Shown here in pieces: positions 1-39,200 of a stretch of 64,000 bases of DNA. The DNA lies in the NCBI RefSeq assembly GCF_009856865.1, contig NZ_WVUD01000008.1, forward strand, positions 67,499-131,498, read 5' to 3'. A program made the translations under genes and the position numbers. The notes below the pieces were generated by a model. It searched no databases, was not told the origin of the DNA, and saw nothing but the letters and a program-made list of their open reading frames with translations. Each line of letters begins with the position of its first letter. Position 1 is the stretch's first letter. The DNA is from Solidesulfovibrio aerotolerans (GTDB lineage: Bacteria; Desulfobacterota; Desulfovibrionia; Desulfovibrionales; Desulfovibrionaceae).

Positions 1-1
1 C

Positions 2-130
2 AGTTATACGGTGTCGCACATCGTTGACAAGGAGCGCATTCGGGCGACGTTGCGCGACGGGGTGCTGGAATTGCATCTGCCTCGTCTGGAAAGGGTCCAA
101 GCGCGCAAAATCGACATTCAGGCCGGCTGA
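2..130 (+). CDS. Hsp20/alpha-crystallin small heat-shock protein, C-terminal fragment (5' end outside window)
   Basis: Frame 2 reads ...VDKERIRATLRDGVLELHLPRLERVQARKIDIQAG* ending at TGA 128-130. This is the typical Hsp20 C-terminal beta-strand and IXI-like tail. Confidence 0.6.
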   Translation, partial: SYTVSHIVDKERIRATLRDGVLELHLPRLERVQARKIDIQAG

Positions 131-226
131 AGCAAGGGGCCAACCGCCTAAGAGCGACATTGAGGCCGGCTGCAGCCGCCGCGCAAGACTCTACGGGAAT
201 CCGACTGGAAAGCGGTCGGCGATTGA

Positions 227-259
227 GCCGGGATGCGTAGGACGCATCCCGGCTTTTTT
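227..259 (+). terminator. Rho-independent terminator (GGGATGCGT-AGG-ACGCATCCC followed by a T-run)
   Basis: Perfect 9-bp stem with a 3-nt loop, followed by GGCTTTTTTC. Confidence 0.5.
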
Positions 260-476
260 CGTGTCACGTTTTTGAAAAACAGCAGCCGGCGTCTGAAAAC
301 GGCTGCTCGTGGTGCATTTCAAAAGTGTAATGCAAGGATCGAGAGCAAAAGGGCTGTTGTGTCTGTGCCGTAGTCGTGGTTCCTGCGTTGGCGCATGGTG
401 ACTTTGCAATTGACAAAAAGGAGAAAGAACTGAAAGGCTCACGAGATTCACAAGCAATTGCCACGAAGGAGACTGC

Positions 477-875
477 ATGGACGACCATTTGAAAAGCGCA
501 CTGGAAATTGTCAAAGCCCAGGCTTCGGTGCGCACAATGACTCATGAGGAAATTTCTTCCATGGTGCGCTGTCTGGCCGCCGGTATCCGCGCCATCAGCC
601 TCGGCCTGACTGAGGCTGACGACGCGACCGCCGTGGCGATGGACCCTAAAAAAGCGGTGAAGGAAAAATCCATCACCTGCCTGGAATGCGCCAAGACATT
701 TAAGGTCATCACGAAAAAGCATCTGGCCACCCATGGGTTGACCCCGGAGTCGTACAAGGCCAAGCACGGGTTTAAAAAGACCATGCCCCTGGTGTGCAAG
801 TCCTTGCAGCGGGAGCGGCGCAAAAAGATGCAGGATATGCGCCTGTGGGAGAAGAAGGGGAAAGTTGTGGCCTAA
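477..875 (+). CDS. mucR: Ros/MucR family transcriptional regulator (C2H2-like zinc finger)
   Basis: 132 aa. ITCLECAKTFKVITKKHLATHGLTPESYKAKHG matches the Ros/MucR zinc-finger signature. RBS AAGGAG is 8 nt upstream of the ATG. Confidence 0.8.
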   Translation: MDDHLKSALEIVKAQASVRTMTHEEISSMVRCLAAGIRAISLGLTEADDATAVAMDPKKAVKEKSITCLECAKTFKVITKKHLATHGLTPESYKAKHGFKKTMPLVCKSLQRERRKKMQDMRLWEKKGKVVA

Positions 876-993
876 TGGGGCGATTTTCGGTATGAGGGCA
901 ACGAATATGCGAATCGGTCGCACCGTTTTCTGCCTGAGGCCCTGGTGTCCCCCGCAGGAGTTGGCGCGCCAACGATAAGGAGATCGCACGCAC

Positions 994-1269
994 ATGGCTA
1001 AAACCGACATCATCGCCAAGATCCAGGCCAATGCCGCCATCGCCACCAAGGCCGAAGCCGGCAAGGTTCTCGACGCCGTCCTGGCCGCCATCCAGGAGTC
1101 CCTGGCCGGGGGCGAGGCCCTTACCCTGACCGGGTTTGGCACCTTCAAGGTGTCCGAGCGGGCGGCCCGTACCGGCCGTGACCCCCGCACCGGCAATCCC
1201 ATTGATATCCCTGCTTCCAAGGCCGTGCGCTTTACCCCGGGCAAGACCCTCAAGGATGCCGTGAAGTAA
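994..1269 (+). CDS. hup: Histone-like DNA-binding protein HU
   Basis: 91 aa. MAKTDIIAKI...GFGTFKVSERAARTGRDPRTGNPIDIPASKAVRFTPGK is canonical HU/IHF. RBS AAGGAG precedes the ATG and a terminator follows. Confidence 0.9.
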   Translation: MAKTDIIAKIQANAAIATKAEAGKVLDAVLAAIQESLAGGEALTLTGFGTFKVSERAARTGRDPRTGNPIDIPASKAVRFTPGKTLKDAVK

Positions 1270-1289
1270 GTTTTTTTGCAGCCGCATGC

Positions 1290-1322
1290 AAAAAAGGCCG
1301 TGAGCGATCACGGCCTTTTTTT
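1290..1322. terminator. Bidirectional rho-independent terminator (A6-GGCCGTGA-loop-TCACGGCC-T7)
   Basis: 8-bp GC-rich stem flanked by an A-run and a T-run. It lies between convergent hup (+) and the DUF296 gene (-). Confidence 0.65.
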
Positions 1323-1512
1323 GTGGCTGGAGGCGCTGCCCGCGTACCGGGAGTGCGGCGCTTCCCGGGCTGCGCTCCCGGCGACGGCCCCAGCGTGACG
1401 GCCCAGAGCGGCGGCCCAGGGTGACGGCGCGAGAGGACGGGCCAAGAGCGTCTCTCCGAGAGCGACGGCCCCGGAGCGGCGGCCAGGGCCGCGGCCCAAG
1501 TGCGGCAGCGTC

Positions 1513-1962
1513 TCAGCTTACAGCCCGGCCGAGCAGCTCGAACCCGGTTTCCGGGTCTTTGGCCCGGGCCAGATCCAGGCCGGTCATCTCGATGACCACC
1601 ACCTCGAAGATCTTCCAGACATCGAGCCCGGGGCGTACACAGCCGGTGCGGGTTTCGCCGGCCCGGCCAAGGGCCGCGTGCATGTGCAGGCGCGGTGCGC
1701 CGTCGGCCCCGGGAAAAATCGTGCCCACGGCCGCGGCCTCGTGCACGGCGTCAATGGCCGTCAGCATGGCTGTCGGCGGCATGGTCGTGGCGTCCTGCGG
1801 CCCGGTGACCAGCCGGCCGTTTTCCACGCCGCCCAAGGCGGCCACGAGCGCCGAAGACACGCCGCGCGTGCGGGCAAACTCCTCAATGGCGTCCGGGATG
1901 CGGTCCCCGTCGCCCAGCCGCAAGACAAACACCCGGCCGAGCCGGCCTTCGGAAACGATCAT
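1513..1962 (-). CDS. PPC/DUF296-domain protein (predicted DNA-binding protein with PD1-like motif)
   Basis: 149 aa, MIVSEGRLGRVFVLRLGDGDRIPDAIEEFA...PRLHMHAALG. The ATG at 1962 has a GAGGA RBS 5 nt upstream. Family assignment is from memory of DUF296 proteins. Confidence 0.55.
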   Translation of the reverse strand: MIVSEGRLGRVFVLRLGDGDRIPDAIEEFARTRGVSSALVAALGGVENGRLVTGPQDATTMPPTAMLTAIDAVHEAAAVGTIFPGADGAPRLHMHAALGRAGETRTGCVRPGLDVWKIFEVVVIEMTGLDLARAKDPETGFELLGRAVS

Positions 1963-2052
1963 GGCGTCCTCGCTTTGGCAGTCTGCCGCGCCAGGGACAA
2001 CGGGGGGCGCGGTGTCGCCGGCCCCGGCCGCCAGCCCTTACCGGCGCAGCCT

Positions 2053-2095
2053 TTAAAAAAAAGGGGAACCGGACGCGCAGCCCGATTCCCCTGAC
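2053..2095 (-). terminator. Rho-independent terminator downstream of roo
   Basis: On the minus strand: GGGGAATCGG...CCGGTTCCCC followed by T8. It lies just 3' of the roo stop codon. Confidence 0.5.
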
Positions 2096-2115
2096 AGTCG
2101 GTGACAGGAGGCGCG

Positions 2116-3321
2116 TTAGCCGAGCTTGTCGGCCACGAGCTTGCCGATGGTGCGGCCCATTTCCGTGCAGGCAGCCAGTTGTTCGTGGGTGGGCACGTAG
2201 AGCAGGCGCACCGGCGCAACAGGCATTTCCATGCCCATGTCGGTCAGCCAGGCGGCAATGTCCTTGGCGGCCTCGCCGCTCCAGCCATAGGAGCCAAAGG
2301 CCCCGCCGATCTTGCCCTTGGGCTTTAAGCCCTTCATGTAGGTCAGCATGTCCGCCACTTTGGGCAGCATGCCGTTGTTGTGGGTGGCGGAACCCACAAA
2401 GACCGCAGCCGCGTCCCAGACCTCTTCCATGACATCGGAATGGTCAAACATATGCAGATTCATGAGCTTGACCGTCAGGCCCTGCTCCATGAGGCCGGAG
2501 GCAATGGCGTGGGCCATGCGCTCGGTGGAATGCCACATGGTGTCAAAGACCAGCACGGCTTTTTTCTTCTGCTTCTGGGCGGCCAGTTCCTTGTAGCGTT
2601 CGATCACCCAGGCCACATCCTCGGGCGTGCGAAACATCAGGCCGTGGTCCGGGCAGACAAACCGGACATCCAGGCCCATGGTCTCGATGGTCTCGATGGT
2701 CTTTTGGGCGATGGGGCTAAAGGGCAGGACGATGTTGGCGAAGTAGCGGTCGAGCTGCTTGCCCAGCAGGCTGCGATTGACTTCGTCGGCAAAGCGTTCG
2801 CTGGTGGCCCAGTTCTGTCCAAAGGCGTCGGAGGAGATGAGCACGCCGTCTTCGGGGATAAACGTGGCCATGTTGTCGGGCCAGTGGAGCATGCGGGTCT
2901 CCAGGAACTGGAGGGTGCGCTTGCCCAGCGACACGGTGGAGCCGGTCTTGACCACTTCGATGGGCCAGTCGGCGCAATCGAAATGGGCGCGAAGGGCCCG
3001 CTCGCCCATGGGCGAGGTAAAGATCTTTTCGGGTTTGGTGCGGGCCACCAGTTCGGGCAGCGCGCCCGAGTGGTCCATCTCCACATGGTTGACGATGAGG
3101 TAATCGACCTCTTCGGGTTTGACCACATGGGCCAGACGGCACAGCATTTCGCTGCCGTGGCCGGCCTTGACCGAGTCGAACAGGGCGACTTTTTCGTCTT
3201 TGATCAAAAAGGCGTTGTAGGTTGTCCCGGTGGGGGCGGTCATGTAGCCGTGAAAATCACGGCAATCCCAATCGACGACCCCGACCCAGTAGACATCCTT
3301 GCATATTTCAACAGGGTGCAT
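2116..3321 (-). CDS. roo: Rubredoxin:oxygen oxidoreductase / flavodiiron protein (metallo-beta-lactamase plus flavodoxin domains)
   Basis: MHPVEICKDVYWVGVVDWDCRDFHGY...HVEMDHSGALPEL is the diiron site, and the C-terminal flavodoxin fold has AVLVFDTMWHSTE...GSATHNNGMLP. The internal ATG at 3321 was chosen because of its GAGGA RBS and the typical FDP N-terminus. The longer ORF-track start is rejected. Confidence 0.85.
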   Translation of the reverse strand: MHPVEICKDVYWVGVVDWDCRDFHGYMTAPTGTTYNAFLIKDEKVALFDSVKAGHGSEMLCRLAHVVKPEEVDYLIVNHVEMDHSGALPELVARTKPEKIFTSPMGERALRAHFDCADWPIEVVKTGSTVSLGKRTLQFLETRMLHWPDNMATFIPEDGVLISSDAFGQNWATSERFADEVNRSLLGKQLDRYFANIVLPFSPIAQKTIETIETMGLDVRFVCPDHGLMFRTPEDVAWVIERYKELAAQKQKKKAVLVFDTMWHSTERMAHAIASGLMEQGLTVKLMNLHMFDHSDVMEEVWDAAAVFVGSATHNNGMLPKVADMLTYMKGLKPKGKIGGAFGSYGWSGEAAKDIAAWLTDMGMEMPVAPVRLLYVPTHEQLAACTEMGRTIGKLVADKLG

Positions 3322-3365
3322 GGAAATCCTCAAAGTGTCGCCCGGAGAGCGGCGGATGAAACGGG

Positions 3366-3524
3366 TTAGACTTTGTTGAATTCGCTTTTGGGCGCGCCGC
3401 ACACCGGGCAGACCCAGTCTTCGGCCACGTCTTCGAACTTGGTGCCGGGGGCCACGTTGTTGTCCGGGTCGCCGGCGGCGGGGTCATACACATAGCCACA
3501 GATGCTGCATTCGTATTTGTCCAT
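3366..3524 (-). CDS. rd: Rubredoxin (52 aa)
   Basis: The ORF track missed it because it is under 60 aa. The reverse-complement translation is [52 protein letters not shown]. Two CxxCG knuckles are present. It lies directly upstream of roo, as in the D. gigas rd-roo operon. Confidence 0.85.
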
Positions 3525-3789
3525 GATGCTGCTGCTCCATTGCTTAAGGTTGGCTGGCTTGGCGATCCTTATTTGCCCTCAGCGCCGGGTTGCCCGGGGC
3601 ACCCTTGCCTGAGCGGCAACAAGGTCATCTTCCATCAACGCAACAGCGGCCATCTGACGACAGCCGGGGCACGCCACGGAATCGGCCTCGCCGACAGGAG
3701 GCGCGGGGTAAAATTACCGCGCGCGCACGCCTAAGTCTATCCTTTAGTTTGCACCGAATTGTCAAGACCGGCCCTGCGCCCGGGAACGC

Positions 3790-5805
3790 TTACTCCTGCC
3801 GGAACTGCTCCACCAGCCGGGCCAGATGGTTGGCCATGGTGCGCACTTCGTGGATGCGCTCCCCGGTTTCGGCAATGCGGCTGGTCAGATCCTGGGAAAG
3901 TTCGTTGATATGGGCCACGCTGCCGGCGACTTCCTCGCTGGTGGCAGACTGCTGCTCCGAGGCCGTGGCGATGTTTCGCACCATATCGGCGATGCGGTTG
4001 GCCTGATCGACGATGCGCCCGAGCACCTGCCCCGAGCCTTCGGCCATGTCGGCCGTGCGCTCCACCCGGGTTTTCGTCTCGTCCATCCCGGTCACCACCT
4101 GCCGGGTGCTGTCCTGGATTTCGCCCACAGCACAGGCCACCTCGGAGGTGGCGGTCATGGTTTTTTCGGCCAGTTTGCGCACTTCATCGGCCACAACGGC
4201 AAACCCGCGCCCGGCCTCGCCGGCCCGGGCGGCCTCGATGGCTGCGTTTAAGGCCAGCAGATTGGTCTGGTCAGCGATATCTCCAATAACGGAAAGCACT
4301 TGTCCGATATTGGTGGCCCGGATTTGCAGTTGCCCCAGCGAGGCAGCCAGATCGGCGGTGCGTTTGGAAACCAACCGGGTTTCGGTGACGGTCTGGGCCA
4401 CTTCCCGGCCGCCGGCCTCGGCCTCCCGGGAGGCGTCGCCCGAGGCCCGGGCCGTGTCTCCGGCGTTGCGGGCCACTTCAATGACCGTGGCGTTCATCTC
4501 TTCCATGGCCGTGGCCACGCGGTCGGTTTCCCGGGCGGTATTGGCTACGCCGGTGGTCAGTTCCTCCATACGGGAGCTTAAAACGTCTGCGGCGCTGGAA
4601 AGCGCCTGGGCAACCGAGGTGACTTCGTCGGCCACGGCCAGCAGCTTGGCGCGCTGGGCCTTTATGTGGTCCTTGTCGGTCTCTTCCTGGGTCAGATCAA
4701 TAAGGACGCCGATGACGCCGACCACTTCGCCGGCGGCGTTTTTCAGCGGCGAAATTTCATAATGCAGGGGAAAGGTCTGGCCGTCAGCCCTCGTAAACCG
4801 GGTGAAGCCGCTGGTGCAATCGCCTGAGGACAGAACAGCGGCGCAGCCAGAGCGGCCGTCCTCGCGCAAAAAGCTCTCGACCACGGGCTGGCCGAGCATG
4901 GCCTGGGCCGATTTGCCGAGGATGGTGGTCAGCGGCGTGTTGACGAACTCAAAGCAGCGCTGCCGGTCGGCCACGAAGATGGGGATGATGACGCCGTTTA
5001 AGATGCCCCGGTTGTATTCAAGCTGGTCCTTCATGGCCCCGACCATGGTGGAGAGGTTGCCGGCCAGGGAGGCGATCTCGTCTTTGCCCGGATCGTTAAA
5101 GGTGAGATCCAACGAGCCTTGGGCTATTTTGGCCGACAGGGCGGCGATGGTTTTCACCCGGCCGACCACGGCATATTTCATAAAAAGGAGCAGGGCGGCC
5201 AGCAGGGCAACACCCCCGCCCACCGACAGTCCGGCCGCCTTGTACTGGTCGGCGGCCAACCGGCCCATTTCCGGGGCGATATCCTGGACCACCACCATGG
5301 CCCCGAGGATGGGCTTGGCAGCCCCGTGGCAGTGGTGGCAATCGGGTTCGTTGCGGATGGAAGTGACGGCCACAAAGGAGGGCGTGCCGGCCCAGGTGAG
5401 AATCTCGCCGCCGTGGAAGTCCCCGGCCAGGGCCTTTTTGACCAGCCTGGGCACGGCCGGGTCTGTGGCGGTGCGGTCGATGTCCTGGCGCACGGCCCCG
5501 GTCTCGGTGGCATAGGTCACGTTGCCGCTATAATCCGTTAAAAAGACCCGGATATCTTTGTGGGTAGCGGCCACCTTGGCAAATTGCGCCTTGGTTTCGG
5601 TGTTTTTGCCAAGCCGCATGGGTTCTTCGATGGCCAGGCGCAAGATGTTGCTGGAACGCGTGGCCGCCCGGTCGATCTGGTCCACCGCTCCCTGGCGCTG
5701 CCAGTGGGAGTTGGCCAGAAACAGACCGGCGAAGGCCAGGACGGTCAGCCCCGAAACAAGCAGCAGCACCTTGATTCCCAGCGATCGCGCAACCACATTC
5801 ATCAT
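3790..5805 (-). CDS. dcrA: Methyl-accepting chemotaxis protein with a periplasmic c-type heme site (DcrA-like redox/oxygen sensor)
   Basis: Order is TM1, a periplasmic domain of about 150 aa containing CHHCH (CxxCH heme c motif, coordinates 5326-5340), TM2, HAMP, PAS-like region, then an MA signalling domain ([31 protein letters not shown]). Start taken at [10 protein letters not shown] (5805), which has a GGAGG RBS. Homology to D. vulgaris DcrA is inferred from the CHHCH periplasmic motif. Confidence 0.8.
5326..5340 (-). other. CHHCH heme-c attachment motif inside the MCP periplasmic sensor
   Basis: Reverse complement tgccaccactgccac encodes C-H-H-C-H. Confidence 0.7.
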
Positions 5806-5909
5806 GGCCTCCTCGGTAGGGTGGCCCGGAACATTGCACAGATGCAATTCCAGGCGGTACTCGCAACAGCCCTTCCGCCCGGCCAGCTTCCCGGCCGGGC
5901 GGGGTGGCC

Positions 5910-6401
5910 CTAGTGCGCTCCGGCAAAGAGCATGGGCTTGAAGTTAAACGTGCGCACCCGTTCGGCGCTGTGGCAGCCCTCGCACTGGCGCATGGCCAGC
6001 TTGGCCTGGATCAGCTTGGGATCACCGCCGGCATCGGCGTGGGCGGCACCTGGGCCGTGGCAGACTTCGCAGCCGGCGTCGGCCATTTCCGGGGTCTTTT
6101 CAAAGCTGACAAAGCCGCCGGGCTTGCCGTAGCCGGTGGTGTGGCAGGCAAAGCAACTGGCAAGTTCCTCGGGCGTGAGCTTGGGGGCCATGATCTTGAC
6201 GGATTGGGAGGAGTGGGACTTTTTGGAATATCGGGAAAACGATTCGTATTGCTTGGGATGGCAGTCCATGCAGACTTTGGAGCCGACATAGGTGCCCGAC
6301 GGTTCGTCTGCGGCGGCCGCTGGCGCTGTTGCCATGCCAATGGCGCAGGCGCAAAGACCTGCCGCAAGCAATGCCTTAAACCTAGCACGCCAACGGACCA
6401 T
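5910..6401 (-). CDS. Periplasmic tetraheme cytochrome c (c554-like multiheme family)
   Basis: Signal peptide [32 protein letters not shown]. Four CxxCH motifs are present (CMDCH, CFACH, CEVCH, CEGCH). Start at 6401 has a GAGGAG RBS. Confidence 0.75.
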
Positions 6402-6435
6402 GTCGGTCTCCTCGGTTACGTGTGTTGAGAAATTG

Positions 6436-6448
6436 GTTACTTTGTAAC
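6436..6448. promoter_or_regulatory. Perfect palindrome GTTAC-TTT-GTAAC in the promoter region of the tetraheme cytochrome gene
   Basis: It lies 35-47 nt upstream of the ATG at 6401. The minus-strand context is TTGCAA-N16-TTACAA, which is sigma70-like. Possible operator. Confidence 0.3.
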
Positions 6449-6565
6449 ACAATCTATTCAGGGTTGCAATATGGATAGTCGAATTGCCGCAAAAGTCATT
6501 CTGCGTAATGGTTCCGTGTCTCTTGGTTGCACCAAGTCTGGCCTGTCCGGCGCACTGGGCGCAAC

Positions 6566-6600
6566 AAAAACGCCGGAGGGAAAGTTCCCCCCGGCGTTTG
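6566..6600 (-). terminator. Rho-independent terminator downstream of purL
   Basis: AACGCCGGAGGG-aaagtt-CCCCCCGGCGTT hairpin. On the minus strand it is followed by TTTTTGTTG. Confidence 0.55.
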
Positions 6601-6632
6601 GACAGGTTCTGGACGGGCGTAGGGCGGCGCGG

Positions 6633-9629
6633 CTACCAGTTCAGCGTTGCCTTAAAGGCCTGGGCCAGCGCTTCGGCGGGTTCGTCGCAAAGGACGACGC
6701 TGCCCCGGCGCAGGGTCAGCGCAGGGGACTGGGTTACGCTGCCGAGCCGGCCTATGGGCTGGCCGGTAAACAGCGTCTCGAAGGCGGCCGCATGTTGCGG
6801 GGAAACCGCCACCACAAGCCGGCTCTGGGATTCGCTGTAGAGCAGTTCCAGATCGGTCAGGCGTGCGGCCCCGGGCGCGGCGTTGCAGTCCAGCTCGGCT
6901 CCAAGGCGGCCGCCGATGGCCATTTCGGCCAGGGCCACGGCCAGACCGCCGTCGGAGCAGTCGTGGCAGGCGCTTACCAGTCCGGCCTGGATGGCGGCGA
7001 AAAGGGTTTTATAGCGGCGTCGGGCCGAGACGGCCTCGACCTGCGGCACATCCGGCGACGTGAAACCCAGCTCGTCGGCCAGTTCCGAAGCGCCGAGTTC
7101 GGCGGCTGTGGCCCCGAGGACATAGACCAGATCGCCGGGTTGTTTGAAATCCGAGGTCACGACCTTGGCCACGTCGGGCACGAAGCCCATGACCGAGAAA
7201 AGGACCGTGGGCGGAATCGAGATCTTGGCGCCGCCGCCGGAGTAGTCGTTTTTCATGGAGTCTTTGCCCGACACGCAGGGCGTCATAAACGCTCGGCAGA
7301 AATGGGCCAGGGCCTTGTTGGCCCGCACAAGCTGGGCCAGCTTGTAGCGGCCGTCCGGGGTCTTGGCCGACTCCACCGGATCGCACCAGCAGAAGTTGTC
7401 AACGCCGGCCAGACGGTCGGGATCGGCCCCCACGGCCACGGCCGAGCGCACCGCTTCGTCGATGGCGGCGGCCATCATCCAGTAGGCGTCAATGTCGGCA
7501 TAGCGCGGACAGATGCCGTGGGTGAGCGCCACGCCTTCGGAGCGCGACAGCACCGGGCGCAGCACGCCGCCATCGGACGGGCCGTCACGGCGCACGCCGC
7601 ACAGGGGCTTGACGGCCGAGCCGCCCTTGACCTCGTGGTCGTACTGGCGGACCACGTATTCCTTGCTGCAGATATTAAGCCGGCCGAGCATCGTTTTGAG
7701 CAGCGCGCCGTGGCCGCCGGCCGGCAGGACCGGTTCGGTGCGCGCGATAACCGGACGCTTCCAGGTGGCGGCAAGCGCCATGCGCGGCGTGCCGTTGTGC
7801 AGGAAGTCCATGTCGATGTAGGCCACCGTGCGCTGGCCGTAATAGACACGCAGATAGCCGGAATTGGTATAGTTGCCCAGTTCCGTGGCTTCGACGCCCA
7901 TTTCCTTGGCCAGGGCCATGAATTCGGCGAACTTGTCCGGCGGCACGGCCAGGGTCATGCGCTCCTGGGCCTCGGAGGTGAAAATCTCCCAGGGAACCAG
8001 CCCATCGTATTTGAGCGGCACCCTATCGAGGTAGAGTTCGCAGCCGCCGGCGTCCTGGGCCATTTCACCCACCGAGCTGGACAGGCCGCCGGCCCCGTTG
8101 TCGGTGATGGCGTTATACAGGCCCAAATCCCTGGCGCGCATGAGGCAGTCGTACATGCGGCGCTGGGTGATGGGGTCGCCGATCTGCACGGCGGTTGCCG
8201 GCGAGCCTTCGTGCAGCTCTTCCGAGGAAAAGGTCGCGCCGTGGATGCCGTCCTTGCCGACCCGGCCGCCGACCATGACGATGTAGTCGCCGGGCAGGGC
8301 CTTTTTGTAATGGCTCGGTTTGCCGTTGATAACGGCCGGCAGCATGCCGACGGTGCCGCAAAAGACCAGCGGCTTGCCGAGATAGCGTTCATCAAAAACG
8401 ATGGAGCCGTTGACGGTCGGCACGCCGGACTTGTTGCCGCCGTGCTCAACACCCTCGCGAACGCCTTCCAGCACCCGGCGGGGGTGGAGCAGGCGCGGCG
8501 GCAGTTGGCCCTTAAAAAAGGGCGAGGCAAAGCAGAAGACGTCGGTGTTGCAGAGCAGATTGGCACCGATGCCTGTGCCCATGGGGTCGCGGTTCACCCC
8601 CACGATGCCGGTCAGGGCGCCGCCGTACGGGTCCAGCGCCGAGGGGCTGTTGTGGGTCTCGACCTTGATGCACAAATTGAGTTCTTCGGTGAATCGCACC
8701 ACACCGGCGTTGTCGGAAAAGACCGACAGGCAGAAGTCGCGTTCGCCCAGGGCAGCCCGGATGTCGGCGGTGGACCGCTGGATGTAGGATTTGTACAGGC
8801 TGACGATGTCTTCCTCGGTGCCTGCTTCCTCGTCGCGGTAGGTGATGGCTGCGCTAAAAATCTTGTGCTTGCAGTGCTCGGACCAGGTCTGGGCCAGACA
8901 CTCGAGCTCCACGTCGGTGGGGTTGTGGATAAGCCCCCAGGACACCCGGCGCAGTTTAAAGCCCGGCAGGCCGAAATAGCCCCGGATGGCCCACCACTCG
9001 TCCAGGGACAGGGCGAGCGTGCGCTCGTTGCTTAGGGCCTGCATCTGCTCTTCGGTCATATTGAACAGGTCGGGCACGGTGACGGTGGAGTCGGCCTTGC
9101 CGGTGACCTTGGCCGCCCGGGCCGGGAAACCCGGAACGGCTGCCCATTCGTCGCGGGATTTGATCTCGTGGCGCTGAAGCAGATCGTTGGCCAGCAGATC
9201 CAGGGCGACGTGGGCGGCGCTGTCCCGGTCGGGCAGGCCGCAGATGTGATATTGGACGGCGGTGTAGACGGCCAGCTCTTTCCTGCGGGCGTCGTCGAGC
9301 CCAAGGGCCAGGGCAATGGCTTCCTTGGCGGTGCGGGCCTCGTTGTCGGTGACGCCGGGGCGGAAACCCACCTCGATGACCCAGTCGGCCGGGTCGCCCT
9401 GGGGCGTAAGCGGCGCAGCGGATGCGGTCTGGACCACGACGTCATGGAGCACGCCGGCGTCGATGACGGCAGCTATTTCGGCGTCGGTCAGGCCGGCGAT
9501 GGTGAAAATTCGGATCATGGCGACGGCGGTCACCGGCAGATGCAATTCGTTTTGGATCTTGCCGGCCACGCGCTGGCCGACCACATCCCGGACGCTTGGG
9601 CGCAGGCCCACGGCGACGCGACTGAGCAT
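6633..9629 (-). CDS. purL: Phosphoribosylformylglycinamidine synthase, long form with N-terminal PurS-like domain (PurS-PurL fusion)
   Basis: 998 aa. The N-terminus MLSRVAVGLRPSVRDVVGQ resembles PurS. The AIR-synthase-related PurL core follows (GVGANLLCNTDVFCFASP, GIHGATFSSEELHEGS). GGAAGGA RBS precedes the start. Confidence 0.85.
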   Translation of the reverse strand: MLSRVAVGLRPSVRDVVGQRVAGKIQNELHLPVTAVAMIRIFTIAGLTDAEIAAVIDAGVLHDVVVQTASAAPLTPQGDPADWVIEVGFRPGVTDNEARTAKEAIALALGLDDARRKELAVYTAVQYHICGLPDRDSAAHVALDLLANDLLQRHEIKSRDEWAAVPGFPARAAKVTGKADSTVTVPDLFNMTEEQMQALSNERTLALSLDEWWAIRGYFGLPGFKLRRVSWGLIHNPTDVELECLAQTWSEHCKHKIFSAAITYRDEEAGTEEDIVSLYKSYIQRSTADIRAALGERDFCLSVFSDNAGVVRFTEELNLCIKVETHNSPSALDPYGGALTGIVGVNRDPMGTGIGANLLCNTDVFCFASPFFKGQLPPRLLHPRRVLEGVREGVEHGGNKSGVPTVNGSIVFDERYLGKPLVFCGTVGMLPAVINGKPSHYKKALPGDYIVMVGGRVGKDGIHGATFSSEELHEGSPATAVQIGDPITQRRMYDCLMRARDLGLYNAITDNGAGGLSSSVGEMAQDAGGCELYLDRVPLKYDGLVPWEIFTSEAQERMTLAVPPDKFAEFMALAKEMGVEATELGNYTNSGYLRVYYGQRTVAYIDMDFLHNGTPRMALAATWKRPVIARTEPVLPAGGHGALLKTMLGRLNICSKEYVVRQYDHEVKGGSAVKPLCGVRRDGPSDGGVLRPVLSRSEGVALTHGICPRYADIDAYWMMAAAIDEAVRSAVAVGADPDRLAGVDNFCWCDPVESAKTPDGRYKLAQLVRANKALAHFCRAFMTPCVSGKDSMKNDYSGGGAKISIPPTVLFSVMGFVPDVAKVVTSDFKQPGDLVYVLGATAAELGASELADELGFTSPDVPQVEAVSARRRYKTLFAAIQAGLVSACHDCSDGGLAVALAEMAIGGRLGAELDCNAAPGAARLTDLELLYSESQSRLVVAVSPQHAAAFETLFTGQPIGRLGSVTQSPALTLRRGSVVLCDEPAEALAQAFKATLNW

Positions 9630-9687
9630 GGCGTTCCTTCCGTTTTGAGGTCACAAGTGTGCGGGCACGCCGCCGGCAGGCGTCTTC

Positions 9688-10656
9688 CTATTTCTCCCGG
9701 GCGAGCATGGGAGCCAGGACGTCGCTGATCAGTTCGGCTTCGGGGGAGGGGGGAAACAGGGCCAGGGCGGCTTGGGCCTTGGCCAGATACTCGGCGGCCC
9801 TCTCCCGGGTTTTCTCGGCGTGTCCGCCGGCAACGATGTTGCCGCGCAAATATTCGATATCTTCGGCCGAGAGCTGGTCCTGGCGGAAATCTTCAGCCAG
9901 CCGGCGGCGTTCCTCGAAGGGCAGCGTCGCCAGATAGAGGATCAGCGGCAGGGTGACCTTGCCTTCCTTCAAATCGCCGCCGGTGGGCTTGCCGGACACG
10001 GTGGCCGGGGAGGTGTAGTCCAGGGCGTCGTCCACGAGCTGGAAGGCGATGCCGATGGCGTGGCCAAGATCCTGGGCCGCCTGGCACAGCGTTTCACTGG
10101 CTCCGGCCAGCACGGCGCCGCAGTGGCAGGACGCCTGGATGAGGTAGGCGGTCTTGCCGGTGATGATGGAAAAATAGGTGTCCAGCGGCAGATCGACATC
10201 GCGCAGATGGGCGATTTCCTGGATTTCCCCGGTGGCGGTCTGCAGGAGCGCCTCGGACAGGATGCGGGTCAGCTCCGGGTCGTCGTATTCGGCCACCAGC
10301 CGGTTGGCCAAGGCGAGCAATACGTCGCCGGCCAGGATGGTGTGTGTGGCGCCGAAAAGCACATGGGCCGAGGCGCGGCCCCGGCGCAACTTGGCCCCAT
10401 CGACGATGTCGTCGTGCAGCAGCGTGGCCGAGTGCAAAAATTCCAGGGAGCAGGCCAGGGGATGGACGTTGTCCCCGGCATACCCCAAGGCTCTGGCCAC
10501 CAAAATGGTGAGCAGCGGGCGCAGGCGCTTGCCTCCGGCCAACAGCACATGGCGCACCACCGGCTGCACCAGAGGGTTTAGCGTATTGGCCGCGCCCTCC
10601 AGGTACCGGTTGATGGCCGGGACTTCCCGAGTCAAAATGTCCGCGATATCGCTCAT
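9688..10656 (-). CDS. Polyprenyl-diphosphate synthase (IspB/HepT family; menaquinone side chain)
   Basis: The two Asp-rich motifs are LLHDDIVDGAKLRRG and FQLVDDALDY. Start at MSDIADILTRE (10656). The upstream N-terminal extension in the ORF track is rejected. Confidence 0.8.
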   Translation of the reverse strand: MSDIADILTREVPAINRYLEGAANTLNPLVQPVVRHVLLAGGKRLRPLLTILVARALGYAGDNVHPLACSLEFLHSATLLHDDIVDGAKLRRGRASAHVLFGATHTILAGDVLLALANRLVAEYDDPELTRILSEALLQTATGEIQEIAHLRDVDLPLDTYFSIITGKTAYLIQASCHCGAVLAGASETLCQAAQDLGHAIGIAFQLVDDALDYTSPATVSGKPTGGDLKEGKVTLPLILYLATLPFEERRRLAEDFRQDQLSAEDIEYLRGNIVAGGHAEKTRERAAEYLAKAQAALALFPPSPEAELISDVLAPMLAREK

Positions 10657-36273: not shown

Positions 36274-39200
36274 GACCGGGCCGGCTCCCTTGGCGCAACG
36301 GTCCGGCCGCGACCGGCCAGACGCTCGAAGAACAGGTAAATAACCGGCGTGGTATAAAGGGTCAGCACCTGGCTGACCACCAGCCCGCCGACGATGGCGA
36401 TGCCAAGGGGCCGGCGCAGTTCGCTGCCCACGCCCGTTCCGAGGGCCAGGGGCAAGGCACCTAAAAGGGCGGCCATGGTGGTCATCATGATGGGGCGAAA
36501 GCGCAGCAGACAGGCTTCATAAATGGCCTCGCGCGGTGGGAGTCCCCGTTCGCGTTCGGCGGTCAGGGCGAAATCCACCATCATGATGCCATTTTTTTTA
36601 ACGATACCAATGAGCAAGATGATGCCGATAACGGCCATGATGCCCAGATCCTCGCCGCACAGCCATAAGGCTCCCACCGCTCCGACCCCGGCCGAAGGCA
36701 GGGTGGAGAGGATGGTCACGGGGTGGATAAAGCTCTCATACATGACCCCAAGGACAATATAGACCGTAATAAGGGCGGCCAGGATGAGCAGCGGCTGGTT
36801 TTGCAGCGAATCCATAAAGGCCCGGGCCGCGCCGACAAAGGCCCCGGCTATGCTGGCCGGCAGGCCGAGCTCGGCCGAGACGGCCTTGACGGCTGCCACC
36901 GCATCGCCCAACGAATGGCCCGGGGCCACGTCAAAGGAGATGGTGGCGGCCGGAAACTGGGCTTGCCGGTTAATCACCAGCGGCGTTTCCCCCTGGGTCA
37001 CCGTGGCCACGGCGGAAAGCGGCACCTGCCCGCCGTCGATCCCGGACAGGCGGATGCGGTCCAGGGCCTGCGGCCCCTGGGCCATGGCCGGGGCCATGCC
37101 CAGCACCACCCTATATTGGCTCAGTTCCGTAAACATGGTGGAAATCTGGCGCTGGCCAAAGGCGTCATAAAGCACGTCGTCCACGTCGGCAGGGGTTATG
37201 CCATAGCGGGCGGCGGCCACCCGGTCGATGTCCACGTTGACCCGAAGCCCGCCCAGGGCCAGATTGTGGGAGACGTTTCGCATCTCGGGCCGCGCGGCCA
37301 GGGCTTTGACAAAATGCGGCGTCCACTGGGCCAGATCCTGGCTGCTGGGGGTCTCCAGGGTGTACTGGTACTGGGCCCGCCCGGCCCGGGCGTCCACGGA
37401 CAGATCCTGGACCGGCGAGAGCGCCACGGTCAGCCCCGGCAGGGTGCGGGTTTTCTCTTCCAGGCGTCTGGCCACCTGGGCCGCGTCGGCCTTGCGGGCA
37501 CTCTTGGGGATCAGTTCCATGGCAATGCGGCCCACGTTGGGGCTGGGGTTGACCCCGTCCACGCCAACGAAGACCGCAACCGTAGCTACAGCCGGGTCTG
37601 CGGCCAGAATCTCGGACAGCCCGGCCTGGGCCTGGGAGACGGCGGCAAAGGAGGCTGTGGCCGCAGTCTCGAAAACGCCTGTCAGGCCGCCGGTGTCCTG
37701 CACCGGGAAAAAGCCCTTGGGCACGGCGGCATACAGCCACACCGTGGCCGCAACCGTGGCCACGGCCACAACAAGGGTTGTCGGCTGATGGCGCAGCACC
37801 ACGGTAAGCGTTCGGGCGTAGAACCGGGACAGGCCCGCGAAAAAGGTCTGGAAGCCCCGGGTTACAAAGTTACCGCGCAGCCTTCCCGTCTTCTGGCCAA
37901 CAGCCTGCCCCTCCTTCTGGCCCCGGCCCAGCAGCCGGGCGCACAACATGGGCGTCAGCGTCAGCGACACCACGGCCGACAACAAAATGGCCACGCCCAA
38001 GGTCACGGCGAATTCCCGGAACAGCCGGCCCACCACGTCGCCCATAAAGAGCAGCGGAATAAGCACCGCCACCAGCGATACGGTGAGCGACAGGATGGTA
38101 AACCCGATCTGCCCGGCCCCGTCGAGGGCGGCCTTAAGCGGGGCAACACCTTCTTCCACATGGCGGGCCACGTTTTCGATCATGACAATGGCGTCGTCCA
38201 CCACGAAGCCGGTGGCAATGGTCAGCGCCATCAGCGTCAGATTATTGAGGCCATAGCCCAGCAGATACATGACGCCAAAGGTGCCGATCAGGGACAGGGG
38301 CACGGCCGTGCCAGGGATGAGCGTGGCTGGCAGGTCGTTTAAGAATAAGTAAATGACCCCGACCACCAGGATGACCGCCAGCAGCAGCTCGATCTGCACG
38401 TCGTCGATGGAGGCCCGGATGGTGACGGTGCGGTCGGTTAGAACGGCCAGATCCACCGTGGCTGGCAAGGCGGCGCGCAGTTGGGGCATGATGGTTTTGA
38501 TGCGGTCCACCACGGCGATGACGTTGGCTCCGGGCTGGCGCTGGATATTGAGCACAATGGCCGGCTTGCCGCCCACCCAGGCGGCTTGGCGCAGATCTTC
38601 GGGGCCGGCATGGACGTCGGCCACGTCGGAAAGCCGCACCGGCCGGCCGTCGTGGTAGGCAATGATGAGCGGCCGGTATTCCTCGCTGGACAGCAACTGG
38701 TCGTTGGTTTCCAGGATCGAAGACTGGCGCGGGCCGTCAAAGCCGCCCTTGGCCTTATTGACGTTGGCAGCGGCAATGGCCGTGCGCACGTCTTTAAGGC
38801 CCAGGCCATAGGCCGCCAGGGCGGTTGGGTTGGCGTCGATGCGCACGGCCGGTCGCTGGCCGCCGGCCACGCTGACCAGCCCCACGCCCGAGAGCTGGGA
38901 AATCTTTTGGGCCAGCCGCGTGTCGGCCAGATCCTGAATCTCGGTCAACGCCATGGTTTCCGAGGTCAGGGCCAGGGACAGGATGGGCGTGTCGGCCGGG
39001 TTGACCTTGCTGTAGACCGGCGGGGTGGGCAGGTCGGTGGGCAGCAGGCTGTAGGCCGTGTTGATGGCCGCCTGCACCTCCTGCTCGGCCACATCAAGGC
39101 TTAGGCTCAGGGCGAATTGCAGGGTGATGACCGAGGCCCCCGAAGAACTCACCGAGGACATTTCGGTTAAGCCCGGCATCTGGCCGAATTGGCGTTCCAG

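Follow-up and report, generated by a model that had tools for sequence, protein, structure and literature searches.

A c554-like tetraheme cytochrome gene paired with DcrA-type chemoreceptor genes and a candidate leader RNA of rd-roo in Solidesulfovibrio aerotolerans

Downstream of purL in a stretch of 64,000 nucleotides (nt) of the Solidesulfovibrio aerotolerans genome (contig NZ_WVUD01000008.1; hereafter the window, in whose forward-strand numbering all coordinates are given), the minus strand carries a gene for a tetraheme cytochrome (cyt), a gene for a methyl-accepting chemotaxis protein (MCP) orthologous to DcrA of Desulfovibrio vulgaris, and the genes for rubredoxin (rd) and the flavodiiron protein ROO (roo). 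A comparison with related loci showed that the cytochrome gene is the one most tightly coupled to the receptor gene at the locus, and that a conserved hairpin precedes rd and roo. The explanation of the whole that we favour, and to which we give moderate confidence, is that the four genes form two units, that the cytochrome is the dedicated redox partner of DcrA and that rd-roo has its own promoter and a cis-regulatory leader, the locus being the Solidesulfovibrio version of an ancestral Desulfovibrionales oxygen-response neighbourhood downstream of purL. Overall the locus is ordinary, with two conserved features, the pairing of cytochrome and sensor and the rd-roo leader hairpin, that are apparently undescribed.

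DcrA is the textbook chemoreceptor that carries a c-type heme, and reviews list it as a direct O2 sensor. To our knowledge its signal input has never been settled. If nearly all members of the family have a tetraheme cytochrome of their own, the redox state of an electron-transfer partner dedicated to the receptor is the more likely input, and the DcrA-type "direct oxygen sensors" would, if this is true, be read-outs of a dedicated cytochrome. A c554-like cytochrome of sulfate reducers, without an energy-metabolism phenotype in strain G20, would thereby gain a function as well. The leader hairpin would in turn be a handle on the regulation of the main O2-reducing system in aerotolerant sulfate reducers. 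The interest of the locus lies in these two points, a near-universal cytochrome partner that is absent where DcrA was studied and a putative leader RNA of rd-roo.

A cytochrome gene accompanies the sensor domain

Eighty genome loci with relatives of the sensor domain were compared (designated by L numbers), 79 of which extended upstream and were informative. In 68 of these 79, the gene directly upstream, on the same strand, encoded a cytochrome with exactly four CxxCH motifs. The distance between its stop codon and the start codon of the receptor gene was mostly 6-20 nt, and 92-120 nt in the clade of the window. Among distant relatives, with 21-28% identity in the sensor, all six had a gene for a PF13435 cytochrome of about 155 amino acids (aa) immediately upstream. 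The pair was found with different output modules and in different surroundings. In L108 (2479-5724) the sensor domain, with the motif CYHCH, is part of a HAMP-HisKA-HATPase-REC histidine kinase, and a c554-like cytochrome gene lies 33 nt upstream. Two che operons include the pair (cheY-cheA-cyt-MCP-cheW-cheR-cheD in L111 and cheW-cyt-MCP-cheR-cheB in L112), and MCP genes in three unrelated contexts (L107, L109 and L110) each have a cytochrome gene immediately upstream. A reciprocal look-up starting from the cytochrome, made in one case (Desulfomicrobium escambiense), found an MCP gene 9 nt after the cytochrome gene, among arginine-biosynthesis genes.

The pairwise identities of the cytochromes and of the sensors were correlated (r = 0.80 over 2346 pairs). 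Paralogous pairs within one genome were 62-69% identical in the cytochrome and 43-45% in the sensor, and for orthologues between species the corresponding values were 78-87% and 67-77%. Taken together, these identities and the correlation indicate that cytochrome and sensor were duplicated and diverged as a unit. Given that the pairing persists across genomic contexts and output types, a functional partnership is suggested rather than an inherited gene order, and we infer that the cytochrome is the dedicated redox partner (relay) of the sensor heme of DcrA. An earlier note on this DNA, made from the sequence and its open reading frames (ORFs), had placed a tetraheme cytochrome upstream of the receptor as a bystander. 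The gene was found where the note had it, and its product has four CxxCH motifs and a signal peptide, while the tight coupling to the receptor speaks against the role of a bystander.

The cytochrome is a member of the Pfam family Cytochrome_C554 (PF13435; E = 3e-20; 73.5 bits, with 20.8 as the gathering score) and matched the structure 1bvb over residues 38-119 (E = 2e-7). Against the NCBIfam c554 equivalog it scored 35.9 bits, with a cut-off of 400 bits, and it is therefore not an equivalog of c554 from Nitrosomonas europaea. Its sequence is the same (100% identity) as that of a protein recorded as "cytochrome C [Desulfovibrio aerotolerans]". All four CxxCH motifs as well as M71, H121 and the C-terminal H163 were invariant in 69 orthologues and H63 was conserved in most of them; with these residues as candidate distal ligands, all four hemes could be six-coordinate. 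A c554-like cytochrome of G20, Dde_2858, had no fitness defect under 12 energy regimes (PMC4215793), and this null result, as far as Dde_2858 can be likened to the present protein by its c554-like description, fits a non-metabolic role. Literature searches found no link between DcrA and a cytochrome, though a mention in Fu et al. 1994 or Pereira et al. 2011 is possible.

The 104-nt spacer between cyt and the receptor gene holds a GC hairpin of 12 bp (Table 1). Hairpins were found at this spacer in relatives as well (equivalents in L009, L012 and L014), with sequences that differ among genomes, and such a hairpin may set the ratio at which cytochrome and receptor are expressed. A scan for intrinsic terminators found none in the cyt-MCP and MCP-rd spacers, which contained hairpins without a T-run only. 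As a side observation, L108 has two more response-regulator or kinase genes downstream.

The receptor and its heme-c sensor domain

The receptor was 49% identical to D. vulgaris DcrA (UniProt P35841) over 666 of 671 aa, with the CHHCH motifs aligned. It has the DcrA order of domains, that is, a first transmembrane segment (TM1), a heme-c PAS-like periplasmic domain, a second transmembrane segment (TM2), HAMP, PAS and the MCP signalling domain. Judged by full-length homology, the same domain order, the CHHCH motif and an orthologous genomic position, the protein is a DcrA orthologue at the level of sequence. The earlier note had called it DcrA-like and had placed CHHCH at 5326-5340, both of which were correct, the motif being residues 156-160 exactly.

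The family of the sensor domain was collected by an exhaustive HMMER search with residues 1-215 (E ≤ 1e-3), in which 284 cluster representatives matched. One of the clusters holds P35841, "Chemoreceptor protein A" of D. vulgaris Hildenborough. An earlier word-indexed protein search with the sensor domain had given four matches and missed DcrA, and was superseded by the HMMER search. CxxCH was present in 137 of the 151 family members retrieved by then (150 listed by the HMMER search plus P0002), almost always near position 155 and for the most part in the form C[HYF]HCH. Thirteen of the 14 proteins without the motif were fragments of at most 177 aa or matched over the N-terminal 120 or so residues alone; the remaining one, P0122 (327 aa), was N-terminally truncated, yet the site was covered. 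The motif is effectively invariant in the family, and the periplasmic domain is predicted to carry a covalent heme. In an alignment of 26 sensor sequences, P62, M63, G66, T71, N152, C156, H158, C159, H160 and G161 were invariant.

A profile built from these 26 sequences was compared with solved structures and gave meaningful matches to 3b42 (GSU0935) and 3b47 (GSU0582) alone, with the CxxCH motifs aligned (E-values of 5e-4 and 6e-3 for the Geobacter sensor domains, about 17-20% identity). An AlphaFold2 (AF2) model of the sensor domain (mean pLDDT 92) has one PAS/PDC-like domain between two long helices (2-64 and 177-214), and a Foldseek search with the model returned the sensor domains of GSU0935 (E = 3e-6), WalK, CitA, DctB and TlpB. 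The Pfam family PF21563 (Mcp40H-20_sensor) did not match the receptor of the window at E ≤ 0.01 and matched some relatives weakly. The domain has a PAS/sCache-like fold and is at the same time a homologue of solved heme-c sensors. The earlier note had opposed a heme site to a non-heme Cache domain, as the finding that would overturn its view; this was a false alternative, since both descriptions apply.

The invariant pair P62-M63 provides a candidate for the distal ligand of the heme. M63 (5617-5619) lies about 97 residues before the proximal His, a spacing comparable to that of Met60/His144, and may be the counterpart of Met60 of GSU0935, with which it is aligned by this spacing plus one weak HMMER segment. 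In GSU0935, Met60 is the distal ligand, bound while the heme is reduced and released when it is oxidised, in a Met/water swap (PMC8396549).

The closest genome loci retrieved were from Desulfovibrio sp. DV (84% identity in the sensor domain) and from Solidesulfovibrio species (about 70%). The exact receptor sequence as delimited here had no entry in the protein collection, probably due to a differing annotated start codon. A second class of receptors, of about 593 aa, was also noted (L027, L037, L066, L069, L077, L079 and L080, and L071 with 586 aa). Pairs of this class, with their own cytochrome, sit away from purL and rd-roo, Solidesulfovibrio genomes have both classes, and the one pair checked by Pfam (L077) was without the cytoplasmic PAS domain.

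rd-roo as a separate unit

The spacer between the receptor gene and rd (265 nt in the window) was aligned for ten genomes from several genera. Two conserved blocks stood out in otherwise diverged sequence, a promoter-like box and an element of about 63 nt. In the box, which reads TTGACA...GATAGAC(T), TGACA and GATAGA were invariant across the ten genomes. It was also present in L015, L053 and L092, and was kept both where the stop codon of the receptor gene overlaps it and where the receptor gene is gone. We read this promoter-like box as the probable promoter of rd-roo, in agreement with the D. gigas operon, for which a dicistronic rd-roo with its own sigma-70 promoter and strong constitutive expression is cited (PMC545781). 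In L084, L091 and L092, rd-roo and its leader persist without the receptor gene.

The spacing of the genes agrees with a division at this point. From the stop codon of the receptor gene to the next oxygen-defence gene the distance was 209-720 nt in some loci and 1.0-3.7 kb, with extra genes, in others. A tight coupling to rd was found nowhere, the spacer to rd or to the desulfoferrodoxin gene rbo always measuring at least 209 nt or holding extra genes. The receptor gene was followed by rbo or rd in 60 of the 80 loci, often with genes for a PilZ protein, a Fur/PerR-like regulator and rubrerythrin in between. The neighbourhood of dcrA in other genera is an oxygen-response island that includes PerR-like, rubrerythrin and desulfoferrodoxin genes. 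The linkage of dcrA to oxygen defence that the earlier note had pointed out is in this sense conserved; a single co-regulated unit of four genes, which the note had also suggested, is at odds with the separate box, the leader and the spacing. Terminators were found after purL and after roo only. A new transcription unit would begin after the hairpin at 6576-6592 that follows purL, and most likely there are two such units, cyt-dcrA and rd-roo, rather than one.

Some of these loci have additional genes of note. In L019, L020, L058 and L059 a Fur-family (PerR-like) regulator, rubrerythrin and a PilZ-domain protein (the latter in L019 and L059) are encoded between dcrA and rbo-rd-roo, and L058 has additional multiheme cytochrome genes on the opposite strand between the receptor gene and rbo.

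A conserved hairpin in the rd-roo leader

The second conserved block is the structured leader element of rd-roo (Table 1). It was found in 34 distinct versions, almost all of which folded, by minimum free energy, into one irregular hairpin. The hairpin consists of a basal helix P0 (CCUUGUU/AAUAAGG), a bulged A and a helix P1 (GCC-G-CUCAG/CUGAG-GGC; arms GCC.CUCAG/CUGAGGGC), above which come a bulged G, the GC/GC pairs, an internal loop (AA/G) and an apical stem whose sequence is free. The variable region measures 13-21 nt, with lengths in every residue class modulo 3.

The position of the element was constant with respect to rd. In every case it preceded, by 30-100 nt, a rubredoxin gene standing first in its unit (the window, L003-L017, L049, L053, L055, L076 and L083-L106). 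An exact 15-mer of the element occurred in 17 genome loci, all with rd first after the spacer and without rbo. A two-part pattern matched 24 metagenome stretches, in 21 of which the match was 45-100 nt upstream of the rubredoxin start codon; the other three matches were without the flanking conserved bases and had no rd homologue nearby. A covariance model found one copy in the window and one more in L017, and did not find the hairpin in the rbo-containing loci searched. No relevant Rfam match was obtained at E ≤ 1 over 1-10000 or at E ≤ 10 over 3500-3800, and earlier comparative work found no regulatory signal at rd-roo (PMC545781).

P0 shows compensatory changes. At position -3 the pairs were G-U (18), U-A (14) and A-U (1), and at position -4 they were U-A (15), C-G (7), U-G (4) and G-U (1). 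Covariation on the alignment fitted to the covariance model, which leans towards that model, was 0.112 compared with 0.077 ± 0.008 for shuffled alignments (reached by 0 of 500). Support for the apical stem came mainly from folding the sequences one at a time and is weak. We consider the hairpin a candidate cis-regulatory RNA within an rd-roo leader of roughly 200 nt.

In a Desulfolutivibrio-like group (L015, 7724-7803; L016, L055, L085, L100, L104 and L105) a tract of seven or eight U residues directly follows the hairpin, about 40-60 nt before the rd start. These versions look like terminators or attenuators; the version in the window is without a U-tract.

The cytochrome promoter and its palindrome

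Upstream of cyt, a sigma-70-like layout TTGCxx-N17-TAnnnn, or TA(C/T)nnn in its last part, was conserved in L003, L005-L008 and L011, and its conservation points to a promoter of cyt-dcrA at 6441-6469. The palindrome GTTAC-TTT-GTAAC, present at 6436-6448 as the earlier note had it and about 35 nt upstream of the cyt ATG, had been proposed in that note as the operator of a redox regulator. Its frequency is that of chance. Perfect inverted repeats of the form 5-N3-5 number 131 in the window, and for arms of 5 bp and spacers of 0-10 a 231-nt region is expected to hold about 4.9, compared with four in the purL-cyt spacer. In the orthologous promoters the left arm was GTTAC or GTTAT; the right arm was TGTGG in the nearest relative, L003, and different again in others. 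Because the conserved block is TTGCxx-N17-TA(C/T)nnn, the left arm of the palindrome simply overlaps the -10-like box. A search for further copies, which the note had recommended and which was run within the window, gave a single other site with at most one mismatch, at 37861-37873 inside an ORF of 1042 aa. A PerR/Fur-type operator was rejected in view of the chance frequency, the lack of conservation and a half-site arrangement opposite to that of the published Desulfovibrio PerR boxes, GTAAY-N-RTTAC (PMC545781). Sigma-54 elements (-24/-12) were looked for by eye in the cyt promoter and the rd leader, and no GG-N10-GC was seen.

A second conserved block, GACTTCCCCGCCATTC..AAACCGTA, was found just upstream of the -35 element. 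This block (6470-6500, minus strand) is conserved in Solidesulfovibrio-like genomes with the consensus AATGACTTCCCCGCCATTCTGAAAACCGTA, and may serve as an UP-like element or as the site of a regulator.

Proposed mechanism

In the mechanism that we propose, cyt-dcrA would be read from the sigma-70-like promoter at about 6441-6469, giving a secreted cytochrome and a chemoreceptor. The receptor heme c would be attached at Cys156/Cys159, with His160 as proximal and probably Met63 as redox-dependent distal ligand. The cytochrome would come to equilibrium with the electron pool of the periplasm, O2 or both, and would set or reset the Fe(II)/Fe(III) and Met-on/Met-off state of the sensor heme, for instance by re-reduction after autoxidation. 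Yoshioka and colleagues are said to have found in 2005 that the reduced sensor domain of DcrA (DcrA-N) autoxidises in O2, with no stable O2 adduct. Such a sensor would have to be re-reduced, for which the cytochrome is the obvious candidate. By way of TM2, HAMP and PAS, the altered ligand and spin state would be relayed to the MCP signalling domain and on to CheA, giving redox-taxis or aerotaxis. The second unit, rd-roo, would provide a cytoplasmic chain from rubredoxin to the flavodiiron O2 (and NO) reductase, and its leader hairpin would act as a cis-regulatory RNA.

Seen more broadly, the cytochrome and the DcrA-N-type domain may form a widespread and apparently undescribed two-protein periplasmic redox-sensing cassette with MCP or histidine-kinase outputs, of which D. 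vulgaris DcrA, the only member studied, would be an atypical orphan. Separately, rd-roo operons without rbo would have a conserved cis-regulatory leader RNA that is new. We give this broader view even chances.

Alternative explanations

Several observations weigh against two units, a partnered sensor and a leader RNA. The distance of 20 nt between TTGACA and TAGACT is unusual for sigma-70, and the scan found no terminator between the receptor gene and rd, which makes read-through from cyt-dcrA possible. In the clade of the window the wider cyt-MCP gap and its strong hairpin make the coupling look looser than elsewhere. Eleven of the 79 loci were without an adjacent cytochrome (Nitratidesulfovibrio including D. 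vulgaris, Halodesulfovibrio and some Desulfovibrionaceae metagenome-assembled genomes), so that the partner is either not obligatory or encoded elsewhere; at D. vulgaris dcrA, tblastn found no significant remnant of cyt in the purL-dcrA spacer. In one metagenomic lineage (L092, L101 and L103) the receptor gene is cleanly gone, with the four-heme cytochrome still intact. The evidence that links cytochrome and sensor is that of gene neighbourhood. As to the hairpin, covariation on a plain MAFFT alignment was not above that of shuffles, a swap of apical-stem partners was not discriminating (of 930 chimeras, 312 equalled or exceeded the native sequence in stability), and the basal helices never vary and are therefore silent on pairing either way. 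In the lineage without the receptor gene, what comes after the cytochrome gene is the promoter box of rd, then the leader hairpin and rd-roo.

Some of these exceptions would suit a cytochrome that acts as a general-purpose electron carrier of the periplasm, of the c3/c553 kind, in energy metabolism, standing beside dcrA by inherited order and with no sensory role. It is a small soluble multiheme protein of a widespread family, D. vulgaris dcrA does without it as a neighbour and one lineage retains it without an MCP. We nevertheless regard such a carrier as unlikely, given that the adjacency survives unrelated contexts, che operons and different output modules, that the pair was duplicated and diverged as a unit, that gaps of 6-20 nt suggest co-translation, and that the c554-like cytochrome of G20 was without a fitness role in 12 energy conditions (PMC4215793). 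The neighbourhood evidence would apply equally to a bipartite system in which the cytochrome is the primary sensor of O2, NO or H2O2 and passes oxidising equivalents or a conformational signal to an MCP heme that is only a receiver. The cytochrome is homologous to c554, and c554 of N. europaea has been reported to react with NO; the reported autoxidation of DcrA-N without a stable O2 adduct would also suit this version. Nothing sets this version apart from a simple relay, however, the candidate distal ligands would suffice to make all four hemes six-coordinate, which speaks against an open site for ligand binding, and D. vulgaris DcrA is described as redox-responsive (PMC2886117) without having an adjacent cytochrome. 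We consider it improbable that the cytochrome is the primary sensor, and prefer the dedicated relay.

A single operon of all four genes, read from the cyt promoter under a redox regulator bound to the palindrome and co-regulating aerotaxis with O2 detoxification, would agree with the common strand, with the terminator-like sites after purL and roo only, with the place of the palindrome ahead of the cyt ATG and with the Fur/PerR-like genes in the equivalent locus of other genera. The palindrome, however, occurs at chance frequency, its right arm is missing from L003 and other relatives, the single similar site in the window is intragenic and PerR boxes have the opposite half-site arrangement (PMC545781). 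The conserved box and leader upstream of rd, the MCP-rd spacing, which is never below 209 nt, and the survival of rd-roo with its leader after loss of the receptor gene also count against it, and we hold the single operon to be very unlikely. The element upstream of rd could also be a DNA operator, with the inverted repeat GCTCAG...CTGAGC, or a short leader-peptide ORF instead of an RNA structure; its basal arms are sequence-invariant in all 34 versions and an ORF of 24 codons spans it in the window. Both candidates were rejected, the operator as the distance between the arms varies and a fixed geometry is not kept, and the conserved peptide as the length of the variable region is not a multiple of three; lengths of 13-21 nt in all residue classes modulo 3 are incompatible with either. 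The variable part moreover forms a hairpin in each sequence and P0 changes in a compensatory manner, which leaves an element other than RNA distinctly unlikely. Two units, with the cytochrome as partner of DcrA and a candidate leader RNA upstream of rd-roo, remain our preferred reading.

Gene identities and other features of the locus

The four co-oriented genes, among them that of the 52-aa rubredoxin with its ROO partner, were described in the earlier note and were found where it had placed them (Table 1). The rubredoxin matched Pfam PF00301 (E = 4e-25) and NCBIfam RubredRD NF045768 (99.7 bits against a cut-off of 90), and its knuckles CSICG and CPVCG are those of a rubredoxin. ROO matched D. 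gigas ROO (1e5d) end to end, residues 5-400 to 5-400, with E = 7e-143. The ATG at 3321 fits 1e5d residue for residue, and a longer ORF from a GTG at 3402 overlaps rd. The diiron motif HxExDH lies within NHVEMDH, and the diiron and flavodoxin domains together with the closeness to D. gigas ROO assign the protein to class A of the flavodiiron proteins. Scores against the NCBIfam NorV equivalogs were below their cut-offs; a preference for O2 or NO cannot be told from the sequence. No significant tblastn match to rbo was found in the MCP-rd spacer or anywhere in the 64 kb.

Table 1. Features of the purL-roo region, listed in minus-strand order
Feature	Position	Strand	Evidence
purL	6633-9629	-	ORF; Pfam AIRS / FGAR-AT families recorded for the orthologue in L001
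Terminator-like hairpin and T-run 3' of purL	6576-6592	-	Terminator scan
Sigma-70-like promoter of cyt-dcrA: TTGCAA (6464-6469), 17-nt spacer, TACAAA (6441-6446)	6441-6469	-	Conservation
GTTAC-TTT-GTAAC palindrome, GTTACTTTGTAAC	6436-6448	.	Motif search; judged a chance inverted repeat
cyt, tetraheme c554-like cytochrome, 163 aa	5910-6401	-	Four CxxCH, Sec-type signal peptide, Pfam Cytochrome_C554
12-bp GC hairpin in the cyt-MCP spacer, no T-run	5875-5902	-	Folding, spacer z = -3.3
MCP, DcrA-orthologous methyl-accepting chemotaxis protein, 671 aa	3790-5805	-	HAMP, PAS, MCPsignal (Pfam)
MCP periplasmic sensor domain, about aa 35-190	5236-5703	-	HMMER family, AF2 model, 3b42/3b47 matches
MCP HAMP	5032-5172	-	Pfam
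MCP cytoplasmic PAS	4681-5010	-	Pfam
MCP signalling domain	3898-4443	-	Pfam
Promoter-like box of rd-roo: TTGACA (3760-3765) and GATAGACT (3734-3741)	3734-3765	-	Alignment
Structured leader hairpin of rd-roo, about 63 nt	3564-3626	-	Alignment, folding, covariance model
rd, rubredoxin, 52 aa	3366-3524	-	Pfam PF00301, NCBIfam RubredRD
roo, ROO, class A flavodiiron protein, 401 aa	2116-3321	-	Pfam ODP/Lactamase_B and Flavodoxin_1, 1e5d match
Strong intrinsic terminator 3' of roo, 13-bp stem then T8	2062-2092	-	Terminator scan

On the 3' side of roo the window encodes a PCC-domain protein (1513-1962, minus strand), an HU protein (994-1269, plus strand) and a Ros/MucR-family regulator (477-875, plus strand); the HU and PCC genes are syntenic in many related loci. 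The hairpin of the roo terminator also gave a sub-threshold Rfam match to the Xanthomonas small RNA sX14 (2059-2134, minus strand; 25.9 bits with a threshold of 80, E = 0.16), which was judged to be due to chance.

Comparison with known systems

The locus of D. vulgaris Hildenborough (DcrA, DVU3182, P35841) is purL-dcrA-rbo-rub-roo-(228 aa)-HU, and that of the window is purL-cyt-dcrA-rd-roo-(PCC-domain protein)-HU. The two agree in receptor architecture, in CHHCH and in the flanking purL, rub-roo and HU genes. The linkage of dcrA to rd-roo is inherited, was already present in the sequenced D. vulgaris locus and is not new. The window differs in having cyt between purL and dcrA and in lacking rbo, and in that its rd is the first gene of a unit with a leader hairpin, which rbo-containing loci lack. 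DcrA is described in reviews as a c-type-heme oxygen/redox sensor (PMC2886117, PMC8396549).

The Geobacter sensors GSU0582 and GSU0935 (3b47 and 3b42) are remote homologues, with an aligned CxxCH, a matching fold and a comparable Met-His spacing. They differ in that identity is about 17-20% and that DcrA-type receptors add a cytoplasmic PAS domain. With D. gigas the window shares an rd closely followed by roo, 44 nt apart in the window, and the ROO protein itself. Silva and colleagues are said to have described, in 2001, different upstream neighbours for the D. gigas genes. The cytochrome has its tetraheme nature and its Pfam family in common with N. europaea c554 (1bvb / 1ft5, PF13435), but its mature form is about 130 aa long compared with 211, and its context is sensory, not that of hydroxylamine oxidation.

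Campylobacter CetA/CetB is another case of a signalling MCP that needs a separately encoded redox-sensing partner, and such bipartite energy-taxis receptors are listed in PMC2886117. The likeness is a functional analogy only, without homology: CetB is a cytoplasmic PAS protein, whereas the partner proposed here is a periplasmic multiheme cytochrome, and the MCP of the window keeps a heme site of its own.

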